In this document: positions 5,965-17,059 of the stretch, piece by piece | Position numbering within the stretch: the first letter of the stretch is position 1 | Layout of the letters: each line of letters opens with the position of its first letter | Source of the DNA: Candidatus Kuenenia stuttgartensis | GTDB taxonomy: Bacteria > Planctomycetota > Brocadiia > Brocadiales > Brocadiaceae | Reading direction: 5' to 3' | Assembly: GCF_900232105.1 (NCBI RefSeq) | Contig: NZ_LT934425.1 | Span: forward strand, 1,590,001 to 1,622,000 | Length of the DNA: 32,000 bases | Position numbers and translations under genes: made by a program | The notes under the pieces: generated by a model | What the model was told of the DNA's origin: nothing | Database searches by the model: none | Seen by the model: the letters and a program-made list of their open reading frames with translations, nothing else

Positions 5965-6351
5965 TCACTGTGATTTAGTAATGTACCTGTATGTCAAGTC
6001 CCTTGCCGTTCTCCCAACAATTCCCACTTCCAAATCAGATCGATTTACAATAAACTCTACAGACGTGGGAATTCCTATTTCCCAGAGAGTATTGAGTATT
6101 GCAATCTTTAAAAAGGTACTGTCCGTTTTTTTAAAGAGTGTAATAAGAGGTTTCACCGCTTTTTCACTTTTCAGCCTGCCTACGATATATACTGCCCGCA
6201 GAACTGTTTCCGGTTCTGTATGCCTTAGCGCATTTATCAATTTTTTCTCATAATCCATGCCTTCATATTTCAATATATCCGCATTACAGAAAGGACATGT
6301 TTCCTCAACCGCATTTATTTCCTTCCAACATTCCGGACAATAAAATGTCAT
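5965..6351 (-). CDS. zinc-ribbon plus HEAT-repeat (PBS-lyase HEAT-like) protein
   Basis: The track ORF 5965..6528 would overlap the upstream FNT gene by 89 nt with a hydrophobic junk N-terminus. The internal ATG at 6351 gives MTFYCPECWKEINAVEETCPFC (two CxxC pairs) followed by HEAT-like repeats LINALRHTEPETVLRAVYIVGRLKSEKAVKPLITLFKKTDSTFLKIAILNTLWEIG. Confidence 0.6.
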   Translation of the reverse strand: MTFYCPECWKEINAVEETCPFCNADILKYEGMDYEKKLINALRHTEPETVLRAVYIVGRLKSEKAVKPLITLFKKTDSTFLKIAILNTLWEIGIPTSVEFIVNRSDLEVGIVGRTARDLTYRYITKSQ

Positions 6352-6439
6352 GATACATCCATCCTTTGAATTAAATGAGAATCCAGAGAAATGAAACAGA
6401 AAACCGGATTGCTGCTTTCGCAGGAATAACAACTTACTT

Positions 6440-7330
6440 TTATCGCTTACTATAGCAGTTGTGAGGCCGCAGGTAAATAAACCAGAATACCACGCCCACC
6501 AAAACAACGCCGCCCACAAAGTTTCCAATGGTGACCGGAAAGAGGTTATTTATAAAAAATCCCTTCCATGTAAGTTGTGAAATATCTAATGTTTTACCTG
6601 CCATCTCTTCTGCAGCAGCAACGACAGCCTGGTTTTTCCGCAATACCAAACCCATCGGGATAAAATACATGTTCGCAACACAATGTTCAAACCCGCTGGC
6701 AACAAAACCGCCGATAGGAAACAGAACCGAAAGCACCTTATCTGCCATGCTTCTACCACTATAACATAACCAAACATTAAGGCATACCAAGGCATTGCAA
6801 AGCACACCTCTTGCCAGGGCTGCCTCAAAAGAGAGGGTAGTCTTTTTGTGGGCAATAAGCAACGCCTTTGCGCCCGTCATAAAATGAAAAAATTCCCATT
6901 GATGAGCCAGATACATCCAGAAGACCATCAGGATCCCGCCTATAAAGTTACCCACATACACAATAATCCATATCCTGAGCAAGTCCCGGGTTGTAATACG
7001 TTTGCTAAGATAGCCCATAACGTTGAGATTGTTACCGGTAAAGAGTTCGGCCCCGGCGGTTTCAACCAGTATGAGTCCGAGTGAAAACACTATACCCATA
7101 ATAAGAGAGGTAATGCCTAAATGGAGAGCAGAATCACTCGTTACAAAAGTAGCAAACTGTGCGCCCATGGCAACAAATATCCCGGCCATGATACTCAATA
7201 TAAAGGTCTGCATAACACGCAATCCTGCCCTTGCGACAGCCTTGTTTTCAACAATGGCAGCGGTTTGCACAGGCGAATGCGCGGCACCGGCATGTGCTGC
7301 CCGGCGGAATTCTGACATATCGTTTCCCAT
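6440..7330 (-). CDS. formate/nitrite transporter family channel (FocA/NirC-type), paralogue 2
   Basis: 296-aa polytopic membrane ORF with the FNT signatures GAELFTGNN (omega-loop Thr) and SGFEHCVANMYFIPMG (S-loop His). A perfect SD AAGGAGG is embedded in the 3' end of the upstream paralogue, with only a 5-nt gap. Confidence 0.9.
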   Translation of the reverse strand: MGNDMSEFRRAAHAGAAHSPVQTAAIVENKAVARAGLRVMQTFILSIMAGIFVAMGAQFATFVTSDSALHLGITSLIMGIVFSLGLILVETAGAELFTGNNLNVMGYLSKRITTRDLLRIWIIVYVGNFIGGILMVFWMYLAHQWEFFHFMTGAKALLIAHKKTTLSFEAALARGVLCNALVCLNVWLCYSGRSMADKVLSVLFPIGGFVASGFEHCVANMYFIPMGLVLRKNQAVVAAAEEMAGKTLDISQLTWKGFFINNLFPVTIGNFVGGVVLVGVVFWFIYLRPHNCYSKR

Positions 7331-7335
7331 TAACC

Positions 7336-8247
7336 CTAAACCTCCTTTCCCTTCTCAGGAAAGCGTAAATATACAAACCAGTACGCACCTGCAACTAACA
7401 CAACACCACCGATTACATTTCCGAGAACGACAGGACACAAATTATCGAATAAAAATCCTTTAAAAAAGGTGAGATTGGAAAGGTCTAGTCTCCCACCATG
7501 TACCTTTTCTGCAACGGTCAGCACCATTCGGTTGTCTTTCAGAATAATCCCCATGGGGATAAGCCACATATTGACAGCACCGTGCTCAAACCCACATGCC
7601 ATGATACAGGAAACAGGCCACAGCAATGACAGTATTTTATCAATATTGCTTTTACTGCAGTAACACAGCCAAACACCCAGACATATCAGTGCATTGCCCA
7701 TCATTCCGCGCGCCAGGAGTACACCAAACGAGGTGTTTACTTTCTCGTTAGCCATGAGAATAATTTTTGCGCCCAGCAGGTAATTGCTCATCATCCACTG
7801 CTCAGATTTGTATATCCATACCACCAAGGTTAACGCTCCAATAAGATTACCAATAAACGCTATGATTACATTCCTCGTAAATGCCCTGCCGGTAATTTTC
7901 CCGGATAGAAAAGACATTGCGACAAGAGGGTTTCCCATAAAAAGTTCTGCGCCGGTGATTACTATTAAAACCATCGACAGAGTAAAAGCCACACCCCCGA
8001 CAAGTTGGTTTAAACCATAGCTAGAGGTTGCGGTATGGGTTACTAACACGGATAGTTGCATACCAAGCGCAATAAAGACCCCCGCAAGTATACCGAGACC
8101 AAGCAGGGTTAAAGCGTCAAGATTCGTCCTTGCACGACCTACCAGCCCAGCTTTCTTAGCCGTTTCAAACGGCTCACAGGCATCGGCCCCAGTAACCAGT
8201 TTGTTACACTTCTGATTGCTTATATCAGTACCTTTTGTTTCTGACAT
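7336..8247 (-). CDS. formate/nitrite transporter family channel, paralogue 1 (omega-loop Thr replaced by Met)
   Basis: 303-aa ORF, colinear with paralogue 2 and with FocA as I remember it. S-loop CGFEHGAVNMWLIPMG retains the His, but the omega loop reads GAELFMGNP. SD AAGGAG sits 8 nt upstream. Confidence 0.9.
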   Translation of the reverse strand: MSETKGTDISNQKCNKLVTGADACEPFETAKKAGLVGRARTNLDALTLLGLGILAGVFIALGMQLSVLVTHTATSSYGLNQLVGGVAFTLSMVLIVITGAELFMGNPLVAMSFLSGKITGRAFTRNVIIAFIGNLIGALTLVVWIYKSEQWMMSNYLLGAKIILMANEKVNTSFGVLLARGMMGNALICLGVWLCYCSKSNIDKILSLLWPVSCIMACGFEHGAVNMWLIPMGIILKDNRMVLTVAEKVHGGRLDLSNLTFFKGFLFDNLCPVVLGNVIGGVVLVAGAYWFVYLRFPEKGKEV

Positions 8248-8535
8248 AAAATCGACTCCTTATATAATGTCTTGTTGGACTTTTCTAGTAAAAGACGTCC
8301 AATATGAAAGCCAGTATACCGAGAACGAGTAGGATAAAAGCGAGGGTTGCCCTGGCGGTACCTACCGGTGCCGCTTCCTCAGCCGTTTCTGAAGGCACAC
8401 AGGCATCGACCTCAATAACTGGCGTGCCATACCCCCGATTGTTTATATCGCCATCTTTTATGTTTATCATAAAATCGACTCCTTTTCTGATTTTCCGCCT
8501 GGCTTTTCTAATAAAAGACGTTCCATATCAAAAAT
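8087..8535. repeat. diverged tandem duplication (unit about 224 bp) covering the leader plus first ~55 codons of the FNT gene
   Basis: Copy A (about 8087-8310) and copy B (about 8311-8535) align end to end. Examples: AGTATACCGAGACCAAGCAGGGTTAAAGCG vs AGTATACCGAGAACGAGTAGGATAAAAGCG, CATAAAATCGACTCCTT in both, and GGACTTTTCTAGTAAAAGACGTCC vs GGCTTTTCTAATAAAAGACGTTCC. Confidence 0.7.
8285..8470 (-). pseudogene. 5' remnant (N-terminal ~55 codons) of an FNT gene, retained as a 61-codon ORF with its own SD
   Basis: MINIKDGDINNRGYGTPVIEVDACVPSETAEEAAPVGTARATLAFILLVLGILA aligns with MSETKGTDISNQKCNKLVTGADACEPFETAKKAGLVGRARTNLDALTLLGLGILA of paralogue 1. The same leader (AAGGAGTCGATTTTATG) precedes both. 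Homology ends where the copy abuts the leader of paralogue 1. Confidence 0.6.
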
Positions 8536-8699
8536 CAAATCAATAATTCCATTAAGGTGTGGGTCGAGAACGTCTTCAAGCTCATTTGCAACGACTCCAT
8601 ACCTTTTCAACTTCCTTGCTTTGGCATCTTCAAGGATACACCAGCATGAAGACATTTTCCGTAACACTTTAGCTTTTTGAAAAATTCCGAGAAAAAAGG

Positions 8700-8880
8700 A
8701 GAACCCCGAAGGGGTAATATGATTATAGAAAAACACGGTAAAACCACGCCTAATCCCGAAGGGATGACATAATCGCCATTGTCCGGTGTTTCATGAAAGA
8801 TAAAATTATATCACCCCTTCGGGGTTAATTATGGGTTTTTCGTATAATTTCTATAATCATTTCATCCCTTCGGGATTATT
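8700..8880. repeat. nested inverted repeat (MITE-like) built from four tetraloop hairpin units
   Basis: Four mini-hairpins: CCCCGAAGGGG (8704-8714), TCCCGAAGGGA (8754-8764), CCCCTTCGGGG (8814-8824) and TCCCTTCGGGA (8865-8875). They are arranged symmetrically around about 8789. The left two-unit module (..CCCGAAGGGGTAATATGATTATAGAAA..TAATCCCGAAGGGATGACATAAT) is the reverse complement of the right module with a few mismatches. Confidence 0.65.
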
Positions 8881-8896
8881 GGAATTTTTCAAAGAA

Positions 8897-9169
8897 CTAA
8901 AGTGTTACCATTTTCCCAAAAATCTCCTTTATCGGATCTCTCAGTTCCTTTTCAAGATCAAATCTTTCTGAAAGCGCCTTTATTCTGTTTTTTATAAGCA
9001 ATGTCCTTTTAAAAATTTCTCTTTTGACTCCTTCGTCCATGTTGCACTTCGTATCGTAAAGGATGCCATTATAGTCGTCGTTATTGAATACTTGTTCAAT
9101 ATACCGGATATTTTCCTCCATAATACGAAGGGCTATCGTAAGTCCTCTTTTTTGATCTTTATTCAGCAT
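8897..9169 (-). CDS. hypothetical 90-aa helical protein, last gene of the dynamin-like cluster
   Basis: ORF with SD AAGAGGA 6 nt upstream of the ATG. The sequence is heptad-like and charged (LTIALRIMEENIRYIEQVF...IKNRIKALSERFDLEKELRDPIKEIF). No family recognised. Confidence 0.6.
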   Translation of the reverse strand: MLNKDQKRGLTIALRIMEENIRYIEQVFNNDDYNGILYDTKCNMDEGVKREIFKRTLLIKNRIKALSERFDLEKELRDPIKEIFGKMVTL

Positions 9170-9284
9170 GATGCATCCTCTTTATCACTTTCCTTGCCAT
9201 CCTTCTCATTACACCAGCATGGGAATCCATCAAATTAGGTATGCACGGTAACAATTCACGTGAGTGGCAAGACACGCGTTGCCA

Positions 9285-10112
9285 TTACGCGGTTAAAAGT
9301 TTCCGATGGACTAATTTACTAATTCCATTTTCTGCGCTTCGTTGTGTTATCCCCTCTTGCATAGCTTGTTCTATTCGCGCAATAGGGTCGTTCCCAAGGC
9401 CTTTCAGTTGCCGGGTATAATATTCAATCGTTGCGCAAATCCCTGTTGTGGCGTCACAGAGTATCCTGTCGCAATTACTGCTGACGTTGGATGCTATTTC
9501 TGATATCATCTCATGTAAAACCAGTTTTCGGCGGGCCGGTTGTGAAAGAAAGGAGTGCAGAATGGAATGAAACTTATTACCAGAAGTTGTCGTATGCTCC
9601 TGGACTATGCAATAAAAATTACCATCCTTGTATATATCCATAGAATATTCAAATTGGCCCATAGGTATCTCAAAGAGGATTTCTAAGGCTGTTTCAAACT
9701 CACGGATCATGTCTCTGGTATGCCGCAGAAGATGGTCGACAGTCTCTTGCATATTCTTTAAGATTGCCCTCTCAAAGTCATTTTGAAACACATCAAACCC
9801 CTTACCAATTTCCTGCTTGATAATTTTCTGCATTTCATTTCTCAAAACGGTGGAATTGGTATCCGGACTTTTTCCAAAAAAATCATGGAGACATTGCTTT
9901 GTCCTCAGTATTTCCTTTTCCTCAAAATCCTTTACCATTTCCTTTGCCTTTAAGCACAACATACCCAATTTGTCCTCGATCAAATACAAAATATTTTCCT
10001 TATCCTGTTTTAGGGTTGCGGCAAGGTGGCGGAAGGTGTCAAACACATTTTTCACGTCTTCCCAAGATGCATCTCGTATTTTTTTCTCAATAATGCCAAT
10101 TGCTTTTTCCAT
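9285..10112 (-). CDS. GTPase-less paralogue of the adjacent dynamin-like protein (stalk/C-terminal region only)
   Basis: 275-aa ORF with a strong SD AGGAGGGAG. It is colinear with residues ~305-590 of the 600-aa protein: TLKQDKENILYLI vs NLKQDREDIAYLL, RTKQCLHDFFGKSP vs RIKQCLVDFYEKNP, MIREFETALEILFEI vs IIREFKTAAELLFEV, VLHEMISEIASNVSSNCDR vs VFHEMMERVSSDVSRNCGR. No P-loop is present. Confidence 0.8.
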   Translation of the reverse strand: MEKAIGIIEKKIRDASWEDVKNVFDTFRHLAATLKQDKENILYLIEDKLGMLCLKAKEMVKDFEEKEILRTKQCLHDFFGKSPDTNSTVLRNEMQKIIKQEIGKGFDVFQNDFERAILKNMQETVDHLLRHTRDMIREFETALEILFEIPMGQFEYSMDIYKDGNFYCIVQEHTTTSGNKFHSILHSFLSQPARRKLVLHEMISEIASNVSSNCDRILCDATTGICATIEYYTRQLKGLGNDPIARIEQAMQEGITQRSAENGISKLVHRKLLTA

Positions 10113-10190
10113 ATCTCCCTCCTATAAAAATTCGACAAGGGCATTATTTCTTTTGCTTATATTTCAATTTGGAAATATAACGGCATAACA

Positions 10191-10311
10191 AAAAACCCCT
10201 TGTCAAGACTAATGCTCCGACAAGAGATTTTCCCCAATAAAAACACCTGTCGAAGCAAGACTTCAATAGGAGTTATCAGCTATCACATAGCAATCAGGCG
10301 AACTCCATCGC
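10191..10311 (-). promoter_or_regulatory. structured intergenic module, copy B (conserved stem-loop block followed by hairpins with U-runs)
   Basis: Minus-strand reading: GCGATGGAGTTCGCCTGATTGCTATGTGATAGCTGATAACTCC, a degenerate hairpin plus T5, then CTCTTGTC-N14-GACAAGGG followed by T6 (10195-10190). It lies between the stop of the 600-aa gene (10333) and the start of the 275-aa gene (10112). It is homologous to 12293..12414. Confidence 0.55.
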
Positions 10312-10332
10312 CTCTTTATTCAGAACCACACC

Positions 10333-12135
10333 TTATACCATTACCATGTTTATTTGCTCCTGCTTTACGTCAACCAAATTAATGGCATCCCAAATATTTG
10401 TCAGTTTTCCTTTGTGTTCTTCCAGCTTCTTAGCCTTGCTTGCCAATAACTCTAACTCAATCCGTACAAACTCATCGCCCGCCTTTCGTCTCTCCTGACC
10501 CTTTTGAATAGCTTGTTCAATTTGCTCTATAAGGTCGCTTCCAAGGTCTTTCAATTGTTTTGCATAGTAGTTAATGGTCTTGTGAATCCTTGTTGTAAGG
10601 TCTGAGCGTGTTCTGCCGCAATTCCGGCTTACATCAGAAGACACCCTTTCCATCATCTCATGAAAAACCATCTTCCTGCTCATAGATTTAGGCAGAAAAG
10701 TACGCAGAATAGACTTAACTTCTTCTTCGGTAGGCGCCGTATATTCCTGCACCATATAATAAAAGTTATTGTCTTTCGTCAGTTCCACTGCAAATTCCGT
10801 CGTGTCCATAGCTACCTCAAAGAGTAGCTCGGCAGCCGTTTTAAACTCACGTATAATATCGTTGGAACGTTTCGTAAAACGGTTAAAGGCCTCCTGCATA
10901 TTATTAGAAATCACCTGCTCGGAATCCTTTCTAAACACATCGAATCCCCTGACAATCTCTTCTTTGATAACCTTTTGCATCTCATCCCGAAAAACTGTTG
11001 GACTAAACTCAGGATTTTTTTCATAGAAATCCACAAGACATTGTTTTATTCTCGCTGTCTCTTTTTCTTCTAAAGACTTTAGCATATCCTCCACCTTCAA
11101 ACACAACTTGTCGGATTCGCCCTTGAGCAGATAAGCAATATCCTCTCTATCCTGTTTCAGGTTTGTAACCAGTTTATAAAAGGTGTTTAGCTTATCCTCT
11201 AATTCTTCACCGGAAGCCTCCAATGTTCTCTTCTCAATAGCTATCTGAGATAATTTCCGGGAGATAAACCGCTGTGTCTTGGATATTGTTGTATTCAGGA
11301 CAATCTTCCCTTTTTCTGAAGAAAGAAAACTCCCCAACGCGTCTGCAAGTTCCAAAAGACCACTCTGTAAAAGCTGAACGTCATTGTTGATTATTTTTGC
11401 CTTCAGTGCTTCTCTGGCAGAAATAGGCCAGATTTTATGCACGGCAAACCCCATCTCCTCTAACACCTGTTTATTAAAGGCGACTATTTCCTCCATCTCG
11501 TTCGAAGTCAGATTATCAATCTTGTTTAACACGAAGAATATCTTCTGTGTGGAATCTTTGATGGTATCAAGGAGTTCCTTTTCCACCTGTGAGATGGGAA
11601 CATCAGCGCTCATAAGGAACAATGCGGCATCAAGGTGGTCTAAAAATCCATACGTCGTTTCCGTGTTATGCAGAAAGGTTGATCCCACTCCCGGGGTATC
11701 GACCAGCATCATCCCCGCTTCAAGAAAAGGTGACGGATATTCAATGATAGCGCATCGCACTCTGCGTACATTTCCTGGATTTTCCTTTTCAGTAACATAC
11801 CGAGGTAATTCCTCCACACTAATTTCCCTTTCACTACCATCTTCCATGAAAATTATACATCTGATTTCATGGCTAAATCTCAGGATCGTCACAATAGAAG
11901 TTAATGGGACTACCGATGATGGGAGGACTTCTTTGCCAATTAAACTGTTGATAAGAGTCGTTTTGCCTCTTTTAAACTGTCCTAAAACCACCAGATTAAA
12001 GCTGTTTGTTACCAACCGTTTCCTGACCATAGCAAGCAGGCCGTCTCCAATCCCAGCATCATTTTTTGACAAGTCCTCTATATTTTCAATTACACTCAAT
12101 ATTTCTTTCTTATGTTCTACAAATTCATCTAACAT
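10333..12135 (-). CDS. bacterial dynamin-like GTPase (dynamin family protein)
   Basis: 600-aa ORF with G1 LVVLGQFKRGKTTLINSLIG, G3 MLVDTPGVGS and G4 FFVLNKIDNL, followed by a long helical stalk. No obvious transmembrane paddle. Confidence 0.9.
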   Translation of the reverse strand: MLDEFVEHKKEILSVIENIEDLSKNDAGIGDGLLAMVRKRLVTNSFNLVVLGQFKRGKTTLINSLIGKEVLPSSVVPLTSIVTILRFSHEIRCIIFMEDGSEREISVEELPRYVTEKENPGNVRRVRCAIIEYPSPFLEAGMMLVDTPGVGSTFLHNTETTYGFLDHLDAALFLMSADVPISQVEKELLDTIKDSTQKIFFVLNKIDNLTSNEMEEIVAFNKQVLEEMGFAVHKIWPISAREALKAKIINNDVQLLQSGLLELADALGSFLSSEKGKIVLNTTISKTQRFISRKLSQIAIEKRTLEASGEELEDKLNTFYKLVTNLKQDREDIAYLLKGESDKLCLKVEDMLKSLEEKETARIKQCLVDFYEKNPEFSPTVFRDEMQKVIKEEIVRGFDVFRKDSEQVISNNMQEAFNRFTKRSNDIIREFKTAAELLFEVAMDTTEFAVELTKDNNFYYMVQEYTAPTEEEVKSILRTFLPKSMSRKMVFHEMMERVSSDVSRNCGRTRSDLTTRIHKTINYYAKQLKDLGSDLIEQIEQAIQKGQERRKAGDEFVRIELELLASKAKKLEEHKGKLTNIWDAINLVDVKQEQINMVMV

Positions 12136-12292
12136 GAAACTTCAAATCCTCCGGAAAAACAAACGTAGCTGTTCATCTACTTAATTGAATTAATTAGGTC
12201 TTAGGCGACTTTTAACTGAATAAACAAAACGGGGAAACACATGCAATGCGTCTCTACAAAAACTTTGAAATTCCTATACGTAAATTTAACAG

Positions 12293-12414
12293 AAAAACCC
12301 CTGCCAAAACCATTCGTTTGACAGGGGTTTTTCAAAATAAAAAAACTCCTGCCAGAGGAAATCTTTGACAGGAGTTATTAGCTACAATAGCAGCGATTAA
12401 GCGAACTCCATCGC
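12293..12414 (-). promoter_or_regulatory. structured intergenic module, copy A: conserved stem-loop block plus two tandem rho-independent terminators after smc
   Basis: Minus-strand reading: GCGATGGAGTTCGCTTAATCGCTGCTATTGTAGCTAATAACTCC. Next comes hairpin CTCCTGTC-N13-GGCAGGAG (12374-12346) plus T7 (12345-12339), then hairpin CCCCTGTC-N14-GGCAGGGG (12327-12298) plus T5 (12297-12293). Confidence 0.6.
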
Positions 12415-12500
12415 ATATATATTTGTTCTTATTTCAACAACTGCGGGTAATGATACTCACTCCTTCATCTGTTGTCAAACACATTTTGCCATTCTGCGTA

Positions 12501-15500
12501 TTAAGCAACCTTTTTCTCAATCTCATCAAACTTCACGGCAATCTTTTTTGATACCCCTGGTTCCTGCATCGTGATGCCATAAAGCACATCCGCAATGCTC
12601 ATAGTAACTTTATTATGCGTAATCATGAGAAACTGCGTGTCTCTGGTAAACTCTTTAATAATAAGACTGAACCTGTTGATGTTGCTTTCATCCAGGGCGG
12701 CGTCCACCTCGTCGAGGATGCAAAAGGGGCTTGGTTTTGTCTGAAATACCGAAAACAGCAACGCCACGGTGATCATCACTTTCTCTCCCCCGGAAAGGAG
12801 CGTGATTGAACGAAGTTCTTTGTTGGGTGGCTGCGCAACTATTTCAATTCCCGCTTCGAGGATATCAACGTTCTCCTCCAAAATTATATCTGCTTTTCCT
12901 CCGCCAAACAGCTTCCGGAACATCATTTGAAAATTTTCACGGATTTCATGGAAGGTTTTTTCAAAAGATTCACGGCTCGTATGATTAATTTTTTTTATCA
13001 GATTCAGCAGACTCGTATGCGACTTTTCAAGATCCTCCTTTTGGGTGAGGAGAAAACCCTCCCGGCTTTCAAGGTCTTCCTGTTCCGCAATGGCTTCCAG
13101 ATTCACATTGCCCAAACGCTCCACTTTTCCTTGTAATTCTTCTATTTCAACAGAAACCGCTTCCCAAAATTCCTCCGGTGAAACGTCGGACTGAGCTTGC
13201 TTCTCCTTCAAACTGCTGAGTTCCTGCTCAATTTCTTCACGGTTACTGTGTAGTTCGGAAATTTCAAGTTTATATTCTTCTCTTATCCGTTCCTCAAGAT
13301 TGGTTATACGGATATTATATTCATTTTCTTTAAATCGCAATTCCTGAAGATGCTGTTCTACACTCCCATATTCTGCCTGGTTTCCTTCCAGGGATGTACG
13401 TAATTCCGCGGCATGATAATCATTTCTTTCTATTTCTGCACTCAGATTTTCCGTCCTTTCATCAATAACAATTTTTTCTGATTGAAGCGCCTCAATGTGT
13501 TGTTCCGTATTTTTGATTTCTATTTCCGCATCAAATATTTTCTGCTGACAATTTTTATGCTCATCTGCTATATCCCGAACCTGTTCTTCCATTTCCTGCA
13601 GGTCTGCGGAAAGTTTGTTTAACGTCTCTGCCAGACTGTCTTTTTTCTCTTCTTTCTGTGCAAGCATCACCTTTAAAGACATAATTTCTTCCTGCATTTC
13701 CTTCCTTATAACTTCCTTTTCTTTAACAAGCATCGATGTCTCTTCGATTTGTTCTTTTAATGCTTCATGGCGTTGATTGAGGACTTCCAATCTTTCCCTC
13801 AATAAAATTTCGCGTTCATGGGTGTTTTCTATTTCGCCGTTTATTTCGTCTGATTCCTCTTCGTTCATCTTTTCTTCTGCCAGAAGTTCTTCCTGTTTTT
13901 GTCTGTTTTGCGAAAGTTCATTTTCCTTTGACATTTTCAGTAAATTCAACTGTTCTATCTTTACCGCCAATTGGGCAGTTTTCTCTTCAAGCCCGGTCAG
14001 TTCGCCCACATACGTATACTTTTCCCCCTCAAGCCTCTCCAGTTCCTCCTGTATACGGAGCAATTCATCTTCAATTTTCTCCAATTCACTTCTTCGGGAA
14101 ATAATGCCTACCTGCCCCTGCTTTCTGCCGCCGCTGATTGTCCCGTCCAATTCAAACAACTCTCCATTCAGTGTTACACAGCGAACATTGATGCCTTGGC
14201 TATTCAGCCACATTGCAGCTTCAAGATTTTCAACAACAAGGACATTGCCCAAAAATCCCTCTATTACCTCCCGAATATCTTCCCTGCAATTAACAAGACG
14301 GCTTGCAACGCTAATGACATTTGGTTTTTGTAAAATTTCCTCATTGCGAGAAGATTGCCCATGCATACGGTCTAATGGGAAAAAAATGGCATTTCCTTTT
14401 TGATGTTCCAGTAGAAAGGCAAGCGCCTCTATTGCATTTTGCGTGGTGCTCACAACAATGCCTTGCACCTTATCTCCCAATGCAGCTTCAATGGCAAGAG
14501 CATACTGCAAATCCACCTTCAGCATATCCACAATCATGCCTTGTATACCTTTCAAAACAGAATCTGTTTTCTGCGATTCTCCAACGATACATTTTGCCCC
14601 TGAATCAATACCCTCTGCGCGAACCTCATAGTCCATCAGTACTTCATGTCGCGATTTTTTACTGCTTTGCAATTGTTTTTTTAGGTTAATTTGGTCTTCT
14701 AAGGAACGGATTGTGTTAATAATTTCTTGTATACGGCCTTTTGAAGCGAATAAATTGCTTTCTAAAATATCATACTCTATCGTAATAGTATTTTTTTCAT
14801 CTGCAACGGTCTCATATCTCGATTTCAACATATTCAGAGATGAAGCAATTTCGTCCTGCCTTTTTTGAAGCCTCATCACTCTCCCCATCAATGTTTCTTT
14901 TTCCATAGTCAAACTGCCGATTTCATTCTGTACGCCAGATTCTTTTTGCAGTGTAGCAATAACCTCCGCCTTTTTTTCTTCCATGCCCTGATACAAAATA
15001 TCGCATTCAAGGTTTATTTGTTTACTTGAAATTTCTTTATTCTGATGGTCGTTTTGTACCGTTCCTATATCCCGCGTCAATACGTGTAGCATTTCCTCAG
15101 ATTTTAAAATAGTGTTTTTTGTTTCGCCTATCTTATTTTCCAATGTCTTTTGCTGTTCCAAGAGTCTTTCGCGCCGGGTTTTTAATTCTTTAATACGTTC
15201 GGTATTATATTTTATTTTATCCTCGTCTTTTGATATTTGCGACTCAAGGCTCATTTTTTCCGTCTGTAATGCCGCTGATTGCAGTTCCAATTGTTCCAAG
15301 GCCTCTTCAACTTCATCTATTTGTAATTTAAGAGTATCTATAATAGTGGTTACTTTTTGTCTTTGTTCTTCTATTTGTTTTATTTGTTCAGAAACAGACG
15401 CCTTATTGTCACCAAGCTCTCTGTAATTTTTAAGCGAAAGTCCTACCTTTAGTTTTTTTAATTGTTCTCTGTACTCCTGATATCTTCTAGCCTTCGATGC

Positions 15501-16124
15501 CTGAACTTTTATGGAACGAAGCTGCTTTTGTAGCTCCTCAACAATGTCGCCTATTCGTAACAAATTTTGTTCCACATGTTCTAATTTAGACAAAGCAGCT
15601 TTTTTCTGTAATTTGAATCTGCTGATACCTGCGGCCTCTTCAAACAATGCACGCCTTTCGTGAGCATTCGCTCTGAGTAACGCATCGACATTCCCTTGTT
15701 CAATCACAGAATACGCATTTGAACCAAAGCCTGTATCTACAAAAAGTTCGCGTATGTCTTTTAATCTGCTGGTTTGCTTATTAATAAGATATTCAGATTC
15801 TCCGGAAGCATACAGCCTGCGCGTAATACACACTTCAGTATATTCCAGAGGCAATAGTCCCTTATTGTTCAAAATAGTCAACGATACTTCCGCATAACCA
15901 AGAGAGGGCCTTTTTTCGGTGCCATTAAAAATAACATCCGACATTTCATTGCCTCTCAACGATTTAACGCTTTGTTCGCCAAGCACCCATTTAACAGCAT
16001 CCACTATATTACTCTTGCCGCATCCATTGGGACCGACAATTACATTTATGCCGTCCTCAAAAACAACTTCGGTTTTTTCGGCAAACGATTTAAATCCGAA
16101 CAATTCCAGCTTCTTTAATTTCAT
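12501..16124 (-). CDS. smc: chromosome segregation protein SMC
   Basis: 1207-aa ORF. N-terminal Walker A FGFKSFAEKTEVVFEDGINVIVGPNGCGKSNIVDA, long coiled-coil arms, hinge region (GIQGMIVDMLKVDLQYALAIEAALG), and C-terminal signature LSGGEK with Walker B CILDEVDAALD. Confidence 0.97.
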   Translation of the reverse strand: MKLKKLELFGFKSFAEKTEVVFEDGINVIVGPNGCGKSNIVDAVKWVLGEQSVKSLRGNEMSDVIFNGTEKRPSLGYAEVSLTILNNKGLLPLEYTEVCITRRLYASGESEYLINKQTSRLKDIRELFVDTGFGSNAYSVIEQGNVDALLRANAHERRALFEEAAGISRFKLQKKAALSKLEHVEQNLLRIGDIVEELQKQLRSIKVQASKARRYQEYREQLKKLKVGLSLKNYRELGDNKASVSEQIKQIEEQRQKVTTIIDTLKLQIDEVEEALEQLELQSAALQTEKMSLESQISKDEDKIKYNTERIKELKTRRERLLEQQKTLENKIGETKNTILKSEEMLHVLTRDIGTVQNDHQNKEISSKQINLECDILYQGMEEKKAEVIATLQKESGVQNEIGSLTMEKETLMGRVMRLQKRQDEIASSLNMLKSRYETVADEKNTITIEYDILESNLFASKGRIQEIINTIRSLEDQINLKKQLQSSKKSRHEVLMDYEVRAEGIDSGAKCIVGESQKTDSVLKGIQGMIVDMLKVDLQYALAIEAALGDKVQGIVVSTTQNAIEALAFLLEHQKGNAIFFPLDRMHGQSSRNEEILQKPNVISVASRLVNCREDIREVIEGFLGNVLVVENLEAAMWLNSQGINVRCVTLNGELFELDGTISGGRKQGQVGIISRRSELEKIEDELLRIQEELERLEGEKYTYVGELTGLEEKTAQLAVKIEQLNLLKMSKENELSQNRQKQEELLAEEKMNEEESDEINGEIENTHEREILLRERLEVLNQRHEALKEQIEETSMLVKEKEVIRKEMQEEIMSLKVMLAQKEEKKDSLAETLNKLSADLQEMEEQVRDIADEHKNCQQKIFDAEIEIKNTEQHIEALQSEKIVIDERTENLSAEIERNDYHAAELRTSLEGNQAEYGSVEQHLQELRFKENEYNIRITNLEERIREEYKLEISELHSNREEIEQELSSLKEKQAQSDVSPEEFWEAVSVEIEELQGKVERLGNVNLEAIAEQEDLESREGFLLTQKEDLEKSHTSLLNLIKKINHTSRESFEKTFHEIRENFQMMFRKLFGGGKADIILEENVDILEAGIEIVAQPPNKELRSITLLSGGEKVMITVALLFSVFQTKPSPFCILDEVDAALDESNINRFSLIIKEFTRDTQFLMITHNKVTMSIADVLYGITMQEPGVSKKIAVKFDEIEKKVA

Positions 16125-16879: not shown

Positions 16880-17059
16880 TTACTTTTTCGCCTTCTTTGC
16901 AGCAGGCTTGGCTTTTGCTTTTGTCGTCGTCTTCGCTTTTTCTGTTGTTGTCTTTGCTTTTGTTGCGGTTTTTGCTTTTGTCGTTTTGGTGCCAACACTC
17001 TTTGTAGCTGTTTTTTTTGCTCCTGTTTTTGCGGAAGTACCACACTTCTTTACCGGCAT
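16880..17059 (-). CDS. lysine/threonine/alanine-rich histone H1-like (Hc1-like) basic protein, 59 aa
   Basis: Below the 60-aa cutoff of the track. ATG at 17059 is preceded by GAGAGGGGGTGATATTTA (strong SD). Translation checked codon by codon: MPVKKCGTSAKTGAKKTATKSVGTKTTKAKTATKAKTTTEKAKTTTKAKAKPAAKKAKK, stop TAA at 16882-16880. Track ORFs 16699..17043 and 16851..17069 are the other two frames of the same low-complexity DNA. Confidence 0.6.
   Translation of the reverse strand: MPVKKCGTSAKTGAKKTATKSVGTKTTKAKTATKAKTTTEKAKTTTKAKAKPAAKKAKK

Follow-up and report, generated by a model that had tools for sequence, protein, structure and literature searches.

A 32,000-nucleotide (nt) stretch of the genome of Candidatus (Ca.) Kuenenia stuttgartiensis (contig NZ_LT934425.1, positions 1,590,001 to 1,622,000; hereafter the window) carries on its reverse strand a gene for a 600-amino-acid (aa) bacterial dynamin-like GTPase and, following it, a gene for a 275-aa paralogue, termed ST here, which lacks the GTPase domain. 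A fluoride riboswitch stands in front of each gene. The pair is real and unusual, and the proper frame for it is a fluoride-riboswitch-controlled island around the dynamin-like GTPase. In our assessment the locus probably serves Ca. Kuenenia stuttgartiensis as a stress island inducible by fluoride, in which riboswitches gate a GTPase unit and an ST unit by the mechanism proposed below. The promoter, riboswitches, terminators and protein-coding genes of the cluster, given below by their window coordinates, all lie on the reverse strand.

Fluoride riboswitches in front of both genes

The leaders of the two genes each contain an aptamer of the fluoride riboswitch class (crcB motif, Rfam RF01734) that reaches the Rfam gathering score. 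Aptamer 1, in the GTPase leader (12362..12424), does so marginally, its 34.2 bits barely exceeding the required 34. Aptamer 2, in the ST leader (10260..10321), starts 12 nt past the GTPase stop codon and scores 41.5 bits. The first-pass annotation, made from the sequence alone, had described a shared structured RNA-like module before each paralogue; the module is present in both places and is RF01734 in each. Just upstream of riboswitch 1 there is a putative sigma-70-like promoter, TTGACA-17-TATCAT (12450..12478), recognised by consensus match only, at 11 of 12 positions. Expression platform 1 (12292..12376) is made up of two hairpin and U-run terminators, T1 (~12338-12376) and T2 (12292-12333), which were read from the sequence, T2 being found in a terminator scan as well. 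Platform 2 (10190..10274), delimited by alignment of leaders, has the same composition, with T1 at ~10238-10274 and T2 at ~10190-10231.

When 30 leaders are aligned, the helices P1, P2, T1 and T2 are 95.6% paired with 12 compensatory pairs, a result matched by none of 500 shuffles; pair 29:36 of P2, for instance, is CG in 15 leaders, UA in 11 and AU in three. T1 takes in columns 46-50 (ACUCC, 97% paired), and the 3' strand of the pseudoknot, ACUCCU, lies inside it. The leaders combine covariation in P1 and P2 with an expression platform in competition for the 3' strand of the pseudoknot, and having the ACUCCU strand within T1 is the usual ON-switch design. Every transcriptional leader has two tandem terminators, and the 3' half of T1 is complementary to the 5' half of T2 (segments 2 and 3; 88% paired, -12 to -21 kcal/mol, with a compensatory change in one lineage). 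This pairing would couple both terminators to a single aptamer, in a possible four-segment attenuator. In two leaders the terminator is replaced by an anti-Shine-Dalgarno (SD) arrangement. Riboswitches of translational type are seen before an 87-aa Zn-ribbon open reading frame (ORF) in two relatives (L001 9675-9735; L011 11821-11881), where the ACUCCU strand is complementary to the SD sequence. The leaders resemble those of the known fluoride riboswitch regulon in that the aptamers reach the gathering score and a terminator overlaps the 3' pseudoknot strand, and in that enolase and Na+/H+ antiporter genes, classes listed in PMC11139923, are neighbours in relatives. They differ from it in the gene controlled, which is here that of a dynamin-like GTPase, and in having two tandem terminators per leader.

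In the mechanism proposed, two transcription-terminating fluoride riboswitches would gate two units. The first would consist of the dynamin-like GTPase, of the BDLP/IniA type. The second would begin with ST and continue with a 148-aa gene, broken in this genome by a miniature inverted-repeat transposable element (MITE), and probably also with two channels of the formate/nitrite-transporter (FNT) family and a Zn-ribbon/HEAT protein. When fluoride is absent, the ACUCCU strand would pair into T1, T2 would follow and the genes would be off; when it is present, the aptamer would capture this strand and transcription would read through. Both units would then be induced by fluoride in vivo. The GTPase may remodel or repair the membrane under fluoride (HF) stress, by analogy with IniA and DynA under other membrane stresses, and ST may co-assemble with it via trunk and tip contacts, limiting or tuning the polymer. 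ST is thus thought of as probably a modulator of GTPase assembly.

Expression without fluoride can be read from published transcriptomes of K. stuttgartiensis MBR1, obtained in fluoride-free reactors under two conditions (PMC7438415 supplements). The gene for smc, directly upstream of the GTPase gene (12501-16124), reaches 92/136 reads per kilobase per million mapped reads (RPKM), while the GTPase gene that follows it reaches 9.7/9.0, ST 1.6/8.2, the two FNT genes, whose names are also from this source, 7-12, and the HEAT gene 7/30 RPKM (PMC7438415). In the detection column of the same data the GTPase and ST are flagged ND and smc is flagged D; we read ND as not detected in the proteome. The cluster is nearly silent without fluoride, which fits switches that are held off. 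For anammox bacteria, a fluoride-gated island would account for the silence in reactors of focA_3, focA_4 and the hypothetical genes of the cluster, and would point to a dedicated fluoride response.

The near-silence of the cluster counts against a housekeeping role of the GTPase, whether in chromosome segregation, as an smc-linked factor similar to CrfC, or in division of the anammoxosome. Such a role would be in keeping with the presence of the GTPase in all anammox genera at 60-95% identity and under strong purifying selection, and with the adjacency to smc, which the first-pass annotation had pointed out and which does exist in Kuenenia. However, this adjacency is specific to Kuenenia and is not seen in loci L002, L006, L007 and L009 or in Scalindua; moreover, the riboswitch and two terminators stand between smc and the GTPase gene, expression falls tenfold from the one to the other, and the GTPase carries the ND flag in growing cultures. 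A functional link to smc was rejected on the grounds of the Kuenenia-only adjacency and the tenfold drop, and the housekeeping explanation as a whole is very unlikely.

The association of riboswitch and GTPase gene extends well beyond this genome. All 17 Brocadiaceae loci for which upstream sequence is available, the window included, have a fluoride riboswitch ahead of the GTPase gene or ahead of a 66-aa ORF that precedes this gene. The aptamer matches Rfam at the gathering score in 12 of the 16 other loci, and in the remaining four, which are of Kuenenia type, a motif search picked up only the aptamer core. Most Brocadiaceae loci have a further riboswitch before the next gene, be it ST, a P-II gene or an 84-87-aa Zn-ribbon ORF, with up to three riboswitches per locus in anammox bacteria and up to four outside them. 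A short repeat, CCTAATT...TATAGGAATTTCAAAG, is placed downstream of the riboswitch and ahead of the GTPase start codon (12195-12275) and recurs in several genomes, for example upstream of the GTPase gene in L006 and L021; in other Brocadiaceae the 66-aa ORF stands in its place.

Outside the anammox bacteria, a metagenome scan with 30 non-anammox family members as queries returned 80 loci, in which aptamers were sought with a covariance model and counted if they were on the same strand and ended no more than 450 nt upstream of the GTPase gene. Such an aptamer is present in 45 of the 80 loci. The set as a whole contains 88 aptamer matches, spread over 59 loci, and of 19 loci drawn from among the weakest scorers, Rfam confirmed the gene-proximal aptamer in 16. 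The genes that recur in the neighbourhood are those for MFS proteins (20 loci), enolase (16), Na+/H+ exchangers (14), Usp (13), DUF190 (12), Zn-ribbon/HEAT_2 proteins (11) and MutS_V (7), as well as histidine phosphatase. Usp, DUF190 and MutS-like genes are typical members of fluoride regulons. Enolase and Na+/H+ antiporters are among the classes listed for fluoride riboswitches, which comprise exporters, antiporters, pyrophosphatase, enolase, HAD, formate hydrogen lyase and chorismate mutase, and in which the dynamin-like GTPase does not figure (PMC11139923). A search of the literature, which did not cover the supplementary gene list of Baker et al. 2012, found no paper joining the fluoride riboswitch or crcB with dynamin, and searches on fluoride and anammox, and on the locus tags of the cluster, returned nothing useful. 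The GTPase family is a widespread member of the fluoride regulon for which no earlier description was found.

For the most part it is not known which natural signals induce bacterial dynamin-like proteins, and fluoride would be a defined and cheap inducer that makes the function of this subfamily testable. The fluoride regulon, thought of in terms of exporters, ion-homeostasis proteins and fluoride-sensitive enzymes, would gain a membrane-remodelling GTPase together with HEAT, DUF6062 and MFS partners. A wider reading, put forward tentatively as one that may well fall short, is that dynamin-like proteins with the P-loop GQFKRGKTT form an unrecognised core effector of the fluoride response across many phyla, frequently accompanied by a Zn-ribbon/HEAT_2 partner and more rarely by DUF6062, to which anammox bacteria would have added a riboswitch-controlled, trunk-only paralogue immune to fluoride-nucleotide trapping. 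ST would escape such trapping because it binds no nucleotide, and a nucleotide-free paralogue could modulate the GTPase polymer, or take its place, under fluoride stress.

The GTPase and its stalk-only paralogue

The 600-aa protein (10333..12135; kustd1726 / KSMBR1_1480 by gene order) is identical to a Ca. Kuenenia stuttgartiensis database entry named 'putative dynamin like protein'. The first-pass annotation had called it a dynamin-family GTPase, and rightly so: Pfam Dynamin_N matches at 1.5e-27 (97 bits against a cut-off of 27), and the G1 (GQFKRGKTT), G3 (DTPG) and G4 (NKID) motifs can be read in the sequence. The AlphaFold2 (AF2) model (mean predicted local distance difference test score, pLDDT, 74) shows the GTPase domain followed by long helices (residues 260-306, 309-373, 379-439, 487-529, 533-550 and 554-585), which form a helical neck and trunk, with a tip of low confidence at residues 445-483 (pLDDT <50) that contains no hydrophobic stretch. 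Among solved structures, Foldseek placed BDLP (2j69, 4e-20) and IniA (6j72, 2e-18) best and also matched the Campylobacter dynamin-like protein (DLP) pair, Cj-DLP, the alignments to these proteins spanning 610-677 columns. IniA is induced by stress (isoniazid) and acts in membrane maintenance. The 600-aa protein shares with BDLP of Nostoc punctiforme and IniA of Mycobacterium the succession of Dynamin_N domain and long helical neck, trunk and tip. It differs from them in sequence, with only 15-18% identity, in the absence of a hydrophobic paddle, in its pairing with a GTPase-less copy in place of a second full GTPase, and in the fluoride riboswitch upstream. The protein is conserved across Kuenenia, Brocadia, Jettenia and Scalindua, and omega in the columns equivalent to ST is 0.03-0.19.

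ST (9285..10112; KsCSTR_07750 / Q1PZH0, kustd1725 by gene order) can be aligned with the GTPase over residues 300-552 of the latter with no gap, at 48% identity over 253 aa (E 3e-82), and has an SD sequence of its own, AGGAGGGAG, at 10115-10123. The colinear match, the separate SD sequence and the absence of a nucleotide-binding domain had each been proposed in the first pass, as had the pairing of a full-length dynamin-like protein with a stalk-only copy, and all of these stand. ST has no match to any Pfam or NCBIfam domain, that of the GTPase included, and is a derivative of the dynamin family and not a member by the defining domain. Its AF2 model (pLDDT 80.7) has three long helices and a disordered tip at 148-178, and against the Protein Data Bank Foldseek gives weak and indecisive matches to long helical bundles, the stalks of BDLP and IniA among them. 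ST consists of trunk and tip only: of the GTPase's architecture it has neither the pair of N-terminal helices nor the G domain, and the final long helix (554-585) is missing as well. Therefore, it is expected neither to bind or hydrolyse GTP nor to form G-domain dimers. It has kept the conserved stalk motifs of the GTPase family, and it provides a natural experiment on a stalk-only dynamin fragment beside its parent protein.

Two dynamin-derived genes side by side are also found in IniA/IniC, BDLP1/2, Cj-DLP1/2, the DynA fusion, and LeoA with LeoB/LeoC, and paired or split bacterial DLPs of this kind are expected to act as hetero-oligomers (PMC4159319). In those systems, however, the two parts jointly give two complete GTPases. 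LeoC and LeoB together make up a single DLP that is divided within the G domain (PMC4159319), whereas the 600-aa GTPase is complete and has its own stalk, and ST, which duplicates residues 300-552, is an extra trunk-and-tip beside an intact full-length gene. The family does include one split GTPase gene, in L024, with a 256-aa GTPase part and a 308-aa stalk part.

A dynamin-family GTPase is also contained in Eleos (LeoABC), the anti-phage system against which the first-pass annotation had advised scoring the pair. In PADLOC the LeoA model matches the GTPase at 1.3e-15 (55 bits, a partial match, residues 140-423) and the LeoBC model matches it at 6.5e-6, but such scores are expected of any dynamin-family protein, and in the fold search with the GTPase LeoA comes no higher than 24th. 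The locus has no second GTPase-bearing partner of LeoBC type, ST reaching only E 0.042 with the LeoBC model. Furthermore, fluoride riboswitches precede both genes, and the neighbours are metabolic and ion-homeostasis genes with no sign of a defence island. The idea that the pair is an Eleos-type system was dropped because the PADLOC scores are generic and the LeoBC partner is missing, and it can be regarded as barely credible.

ST has also acquired features of its own. Across 19 sequences it has 43 invariant columns, which include cysteines specific to ST. C168, C219 and C226 are invariant in a derived ST clade and absent from the GTPase and from the earliest-branching ST forms, and the family-wide motif NCGRxRYD has become NCDRxLCD in this clade. 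The derived pattern over residues 168, 214, 219 and 226 reads FYC...NCDRxLCDxxxGIC, the GTPase equivalent being FYY...NCGRTRSDLTTRIH. The arrangement of cysteines may constitute a new metal or redox site.

These cysteines bear on the possibility that ST has a function independent of the GTPase, for example as a cysteine-based metal- or redox-sensing scaffold for co-transcribed P-II, FNT or HEAT proteins. In addition to the residues gained by the derived clade, ST is preceded by its own riboswitch and in some loci (L025, L009) also by a promoter of its own, it stands first in a different operon 4 kb from the GTPase gene in L002, and its evolutionary history is unlike that of the GTPase. Nevertheless, the GTPase gene is present at every ST locus with enough flanking sequence, the conserved stalk motifs of the family have been kept, and the extra cysteines are missing from the earliest-branching forms. 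On this evidence an independent function appears improbable, and a role of ST as a modulator of the GTPase is preferred.

Origin and constraint of the paralogue

The homologues of ST that were found are short without exception. Seventeen of the 20 found are 256-294 aa long and the other three are shorter and apparently fragmentary (overall range 177-294 aa); none of the 20 has a GTPase domain. All ST sequences form a single clade in 200 of 200 bootstraps and share the same start residue, and the riboswitch and SD sequence in front of them are conserved. ST arose once, within the Brocadiaceae, through duplication of the stalk trunk-and-tip. It is not the product of a recent 5' deletion of a full GTPase gene, an origin that the first-pass annotation had named as a possible refutation, because every homologue found is short. 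A profile search with ST returned 92 matches among 1.84 billion representatives, nearly all of them full-length GTPases of 570-620 aa. Stalk-only proteins outside the anammox bacteria were looked for among the short matches: the one inspected, P0166, is half of a split gene, and the remaining short non-anammox matches begin mid-protein and may be fragments.

ST occurs in Kuenenia species, in the lineage L002/L007/L009/L018, in L006, in a Brocadia metagenome-assembled genome (L014) and in a groundwater contig (L025). At all nine loci with sufficient flanks the distance from ST to the GTPase gene is no more than about 5 kb and the two share a strand, in varying gene order. ST is missing beside the GTPase gene in six Brocadiaceae loci (L011, L012, L015, L016, L019 and L022).

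The history of ST also differs from that of its neighbours at synonymous sites. When the window is compared with L002, L006, L007 and L009, identity at four-fold degenerate sites is 0.63-0.88 for ST as against 0.19-0.57 for the flanking GTPase, P-II and HEAT genes of the same genome pairs, while amino-acid changes are commoner in ST than in these neighbours. The low divergence at four-fold sites relative to the neighbours suggests that ST moved between lineages later than the hosts split, in other words that an ST cassette has been exchanged laterally more recently than the hosts diverged. Recombination for this exchange may have used the conserved riboswitch leaders as its arms.

The constraint on ST is weak. 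Omega is 0.24-0.57, compared with 0.03-0.19 in the same columns of the GTPase, and the three codon positions have nearly equal shares of the differences (55/46/68, the GTPase having 107/69/299). One Kuenenia lineage (L003-L005) has a 97-aa in-frame deletion in ST. On the other hand, at least ten lineages, down to 42% identity, retain an unbroken frame that begins at the same place, and the probability that it would remain open by chance is about 0.0004 at 22% divergence. The first-pass annotation had described ST as 'maintained'. An open frame beyond chance and a single clade agree with this description, but with constraint weak and distribution patchy the word is too strong.

It might be argued from these data that ST is a dispensable duplicate which is slowly being lost, is carried about in a riboswitch-flanked cassette and contributes little, if anything, to what the GTPase does. 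The omega above that of the GTPase, the near-even codon-position differences, the six loci without ST and the internal deletion would all be accommodated by this explanation. The same can be said of the two terminators of the ST leader, whose folds are the weakest among the 30 leaders (T1 -11.0 and T2 -14.4 kcal/mol, against -16 to -21 for T1 and -17 to -29 for T2 in the others), of the MITE that breaks the next gene in the window, and of the low expression of ST. Set against it are the frame kept open in many lineages, the invariant columns with their ST-specific cysteines, the conserved riboswitch, SD sequence and, in some genomes, promoter, and an omega clearly below 1. A dispensable ST is therefore considered unlikely, if somewhat less so than an ST with an independent function.

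Several observations weigh against the fluoride-inducible island as proposed. ST may contribute little, because it is weakly constrained, is frequently absent and has been internally deleted in one lineage. The tip, the potential membrane-binding region, is modelled with low confidence and is not hydrophobic. The aptamer of the GTPase gene only just reaches the gathering score, and near-identical leaders in other Kuenenia fall below it. Unless coupled to T1, the second terminator that comes after each aptamer might stop transcription from reading through. A promoter scan found no promoter before the ST riboswitch in this genome, such as L025 and L009 possess. Finally, the GTPase gene of Scalindua japonica, which stands alone after pst-phoU, has no recognisable aptamer upstream; its leader (L023 7900-8000) contains a hairpin nearly identical to T1 and may be a decayed switch.

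Neighbouring genes and the interrupted third gene

Database proteins of Ca. Kuenenia stuttgartiensis match the 600-aa, 275-aa and 90-aa products exactly, and the gene order of the window agrees with that from KSMBR1_1484 down to KSMBR1_1473 in strain MBR1. The cluster is preceded by nrdD, nrdG, a 59-aa ORF and smc, in this order.

The gene after ST had been presented in the first pass as encoding a 90-aa helical protein (annotated KsCSTR_07760 / Q1PZF2). This proves to be a truncated fragment, the first 89 residues of a protein of 139-148 aa whose gene is intact in other Kuenenia and Brocadiaceae genomes, and a genuine 90-aa protein was rejected. The product of the 5' part of the 148-aa gene (8909..9169) is 83% identical to the intact 148-aa protein of L003 over residues 1-89 of the latter, and DNA alignment with L020 and L003 supports the extent of this part; the 3' part (8467..8660), inside an ORF at 8467-8736, has 70% identity to residues 79-148. 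Between the two lies a MITE-like insertion of 248 bp (8661..8908), into which the listed 90-aa ORF (8897-9169) extends and inside which it stops. The insertion is assigned to the MITEs because it has 33-bp terminal inverted repeats and an 8-bp target-site duplication, GGAAAATG, at 8653-8660 and 8909-8916. It is short and non-coding, and an alignment gap of the same extent in L020 and L003 marks the precise empty site. The terminal repeats are 88% complementary and occur only at these two places in the window, which thus holds a single copy, and the interior contains four CCCGAAGGG hairpins; the inverted repeats recorded for the element are I1-I6. The MITE-truncated allele is the common one in K. 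stuttgartiensis, being present in 226 contigs.

Further downstream are two genes for FNT-family channels, transcribed in the same direction (6440..8247; Pfam Form_Nir_trans, 1.3e-56 and 3.2e-71, respectively). By gene order that at 7336-8247 is focA_4/kustd1721 and that at 6440-7330 is focA_3/kustd1720, and both are possibly co-transcribed with ST. A 61-aa ORF at 8285-8470 duplicates the 5' end of the adjoining FNT gene, forming part of a direct repeat (8128-8309 and 8351-8532, 71% identity); the duplicated fragment is also found in L001 and L020 and is not found in L003.

The next gene, at 5965..6528, encodes a zinc-ribbon and HEAT_2 protein (Pfam HEAT_2 and Zn ribbon) with 93% identity to a 154-aa protein of L003, and its true start is probably near 6443. 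Homologues adjoin the GTPase gene in L026, in L028 and in the 11 metagenome loci mentioned above, and the protein is a recurrent partner of the GTPase family in anammox and non-anammox bacteria alike. CxxC-rich DUF6062 proteins also recur beside the GTPase family in both groups (L026 451-1890; L028 6235-6777; L001 10413-11075); no literature on DUF6062 was found. In a Brocadia genome the GTPase gene has a c-di-GMP-I riboswitch at a distance of about 4 kb (L022 15459-15571). The 59-aa ORF between smc and nrdG (16880-17059; kustd1728 by gene order) is rich in Lys, Ala and Thr, and at 8600/15612 RPKM kustd1728 is among the most highly expressed genes in the published transcriptomes.

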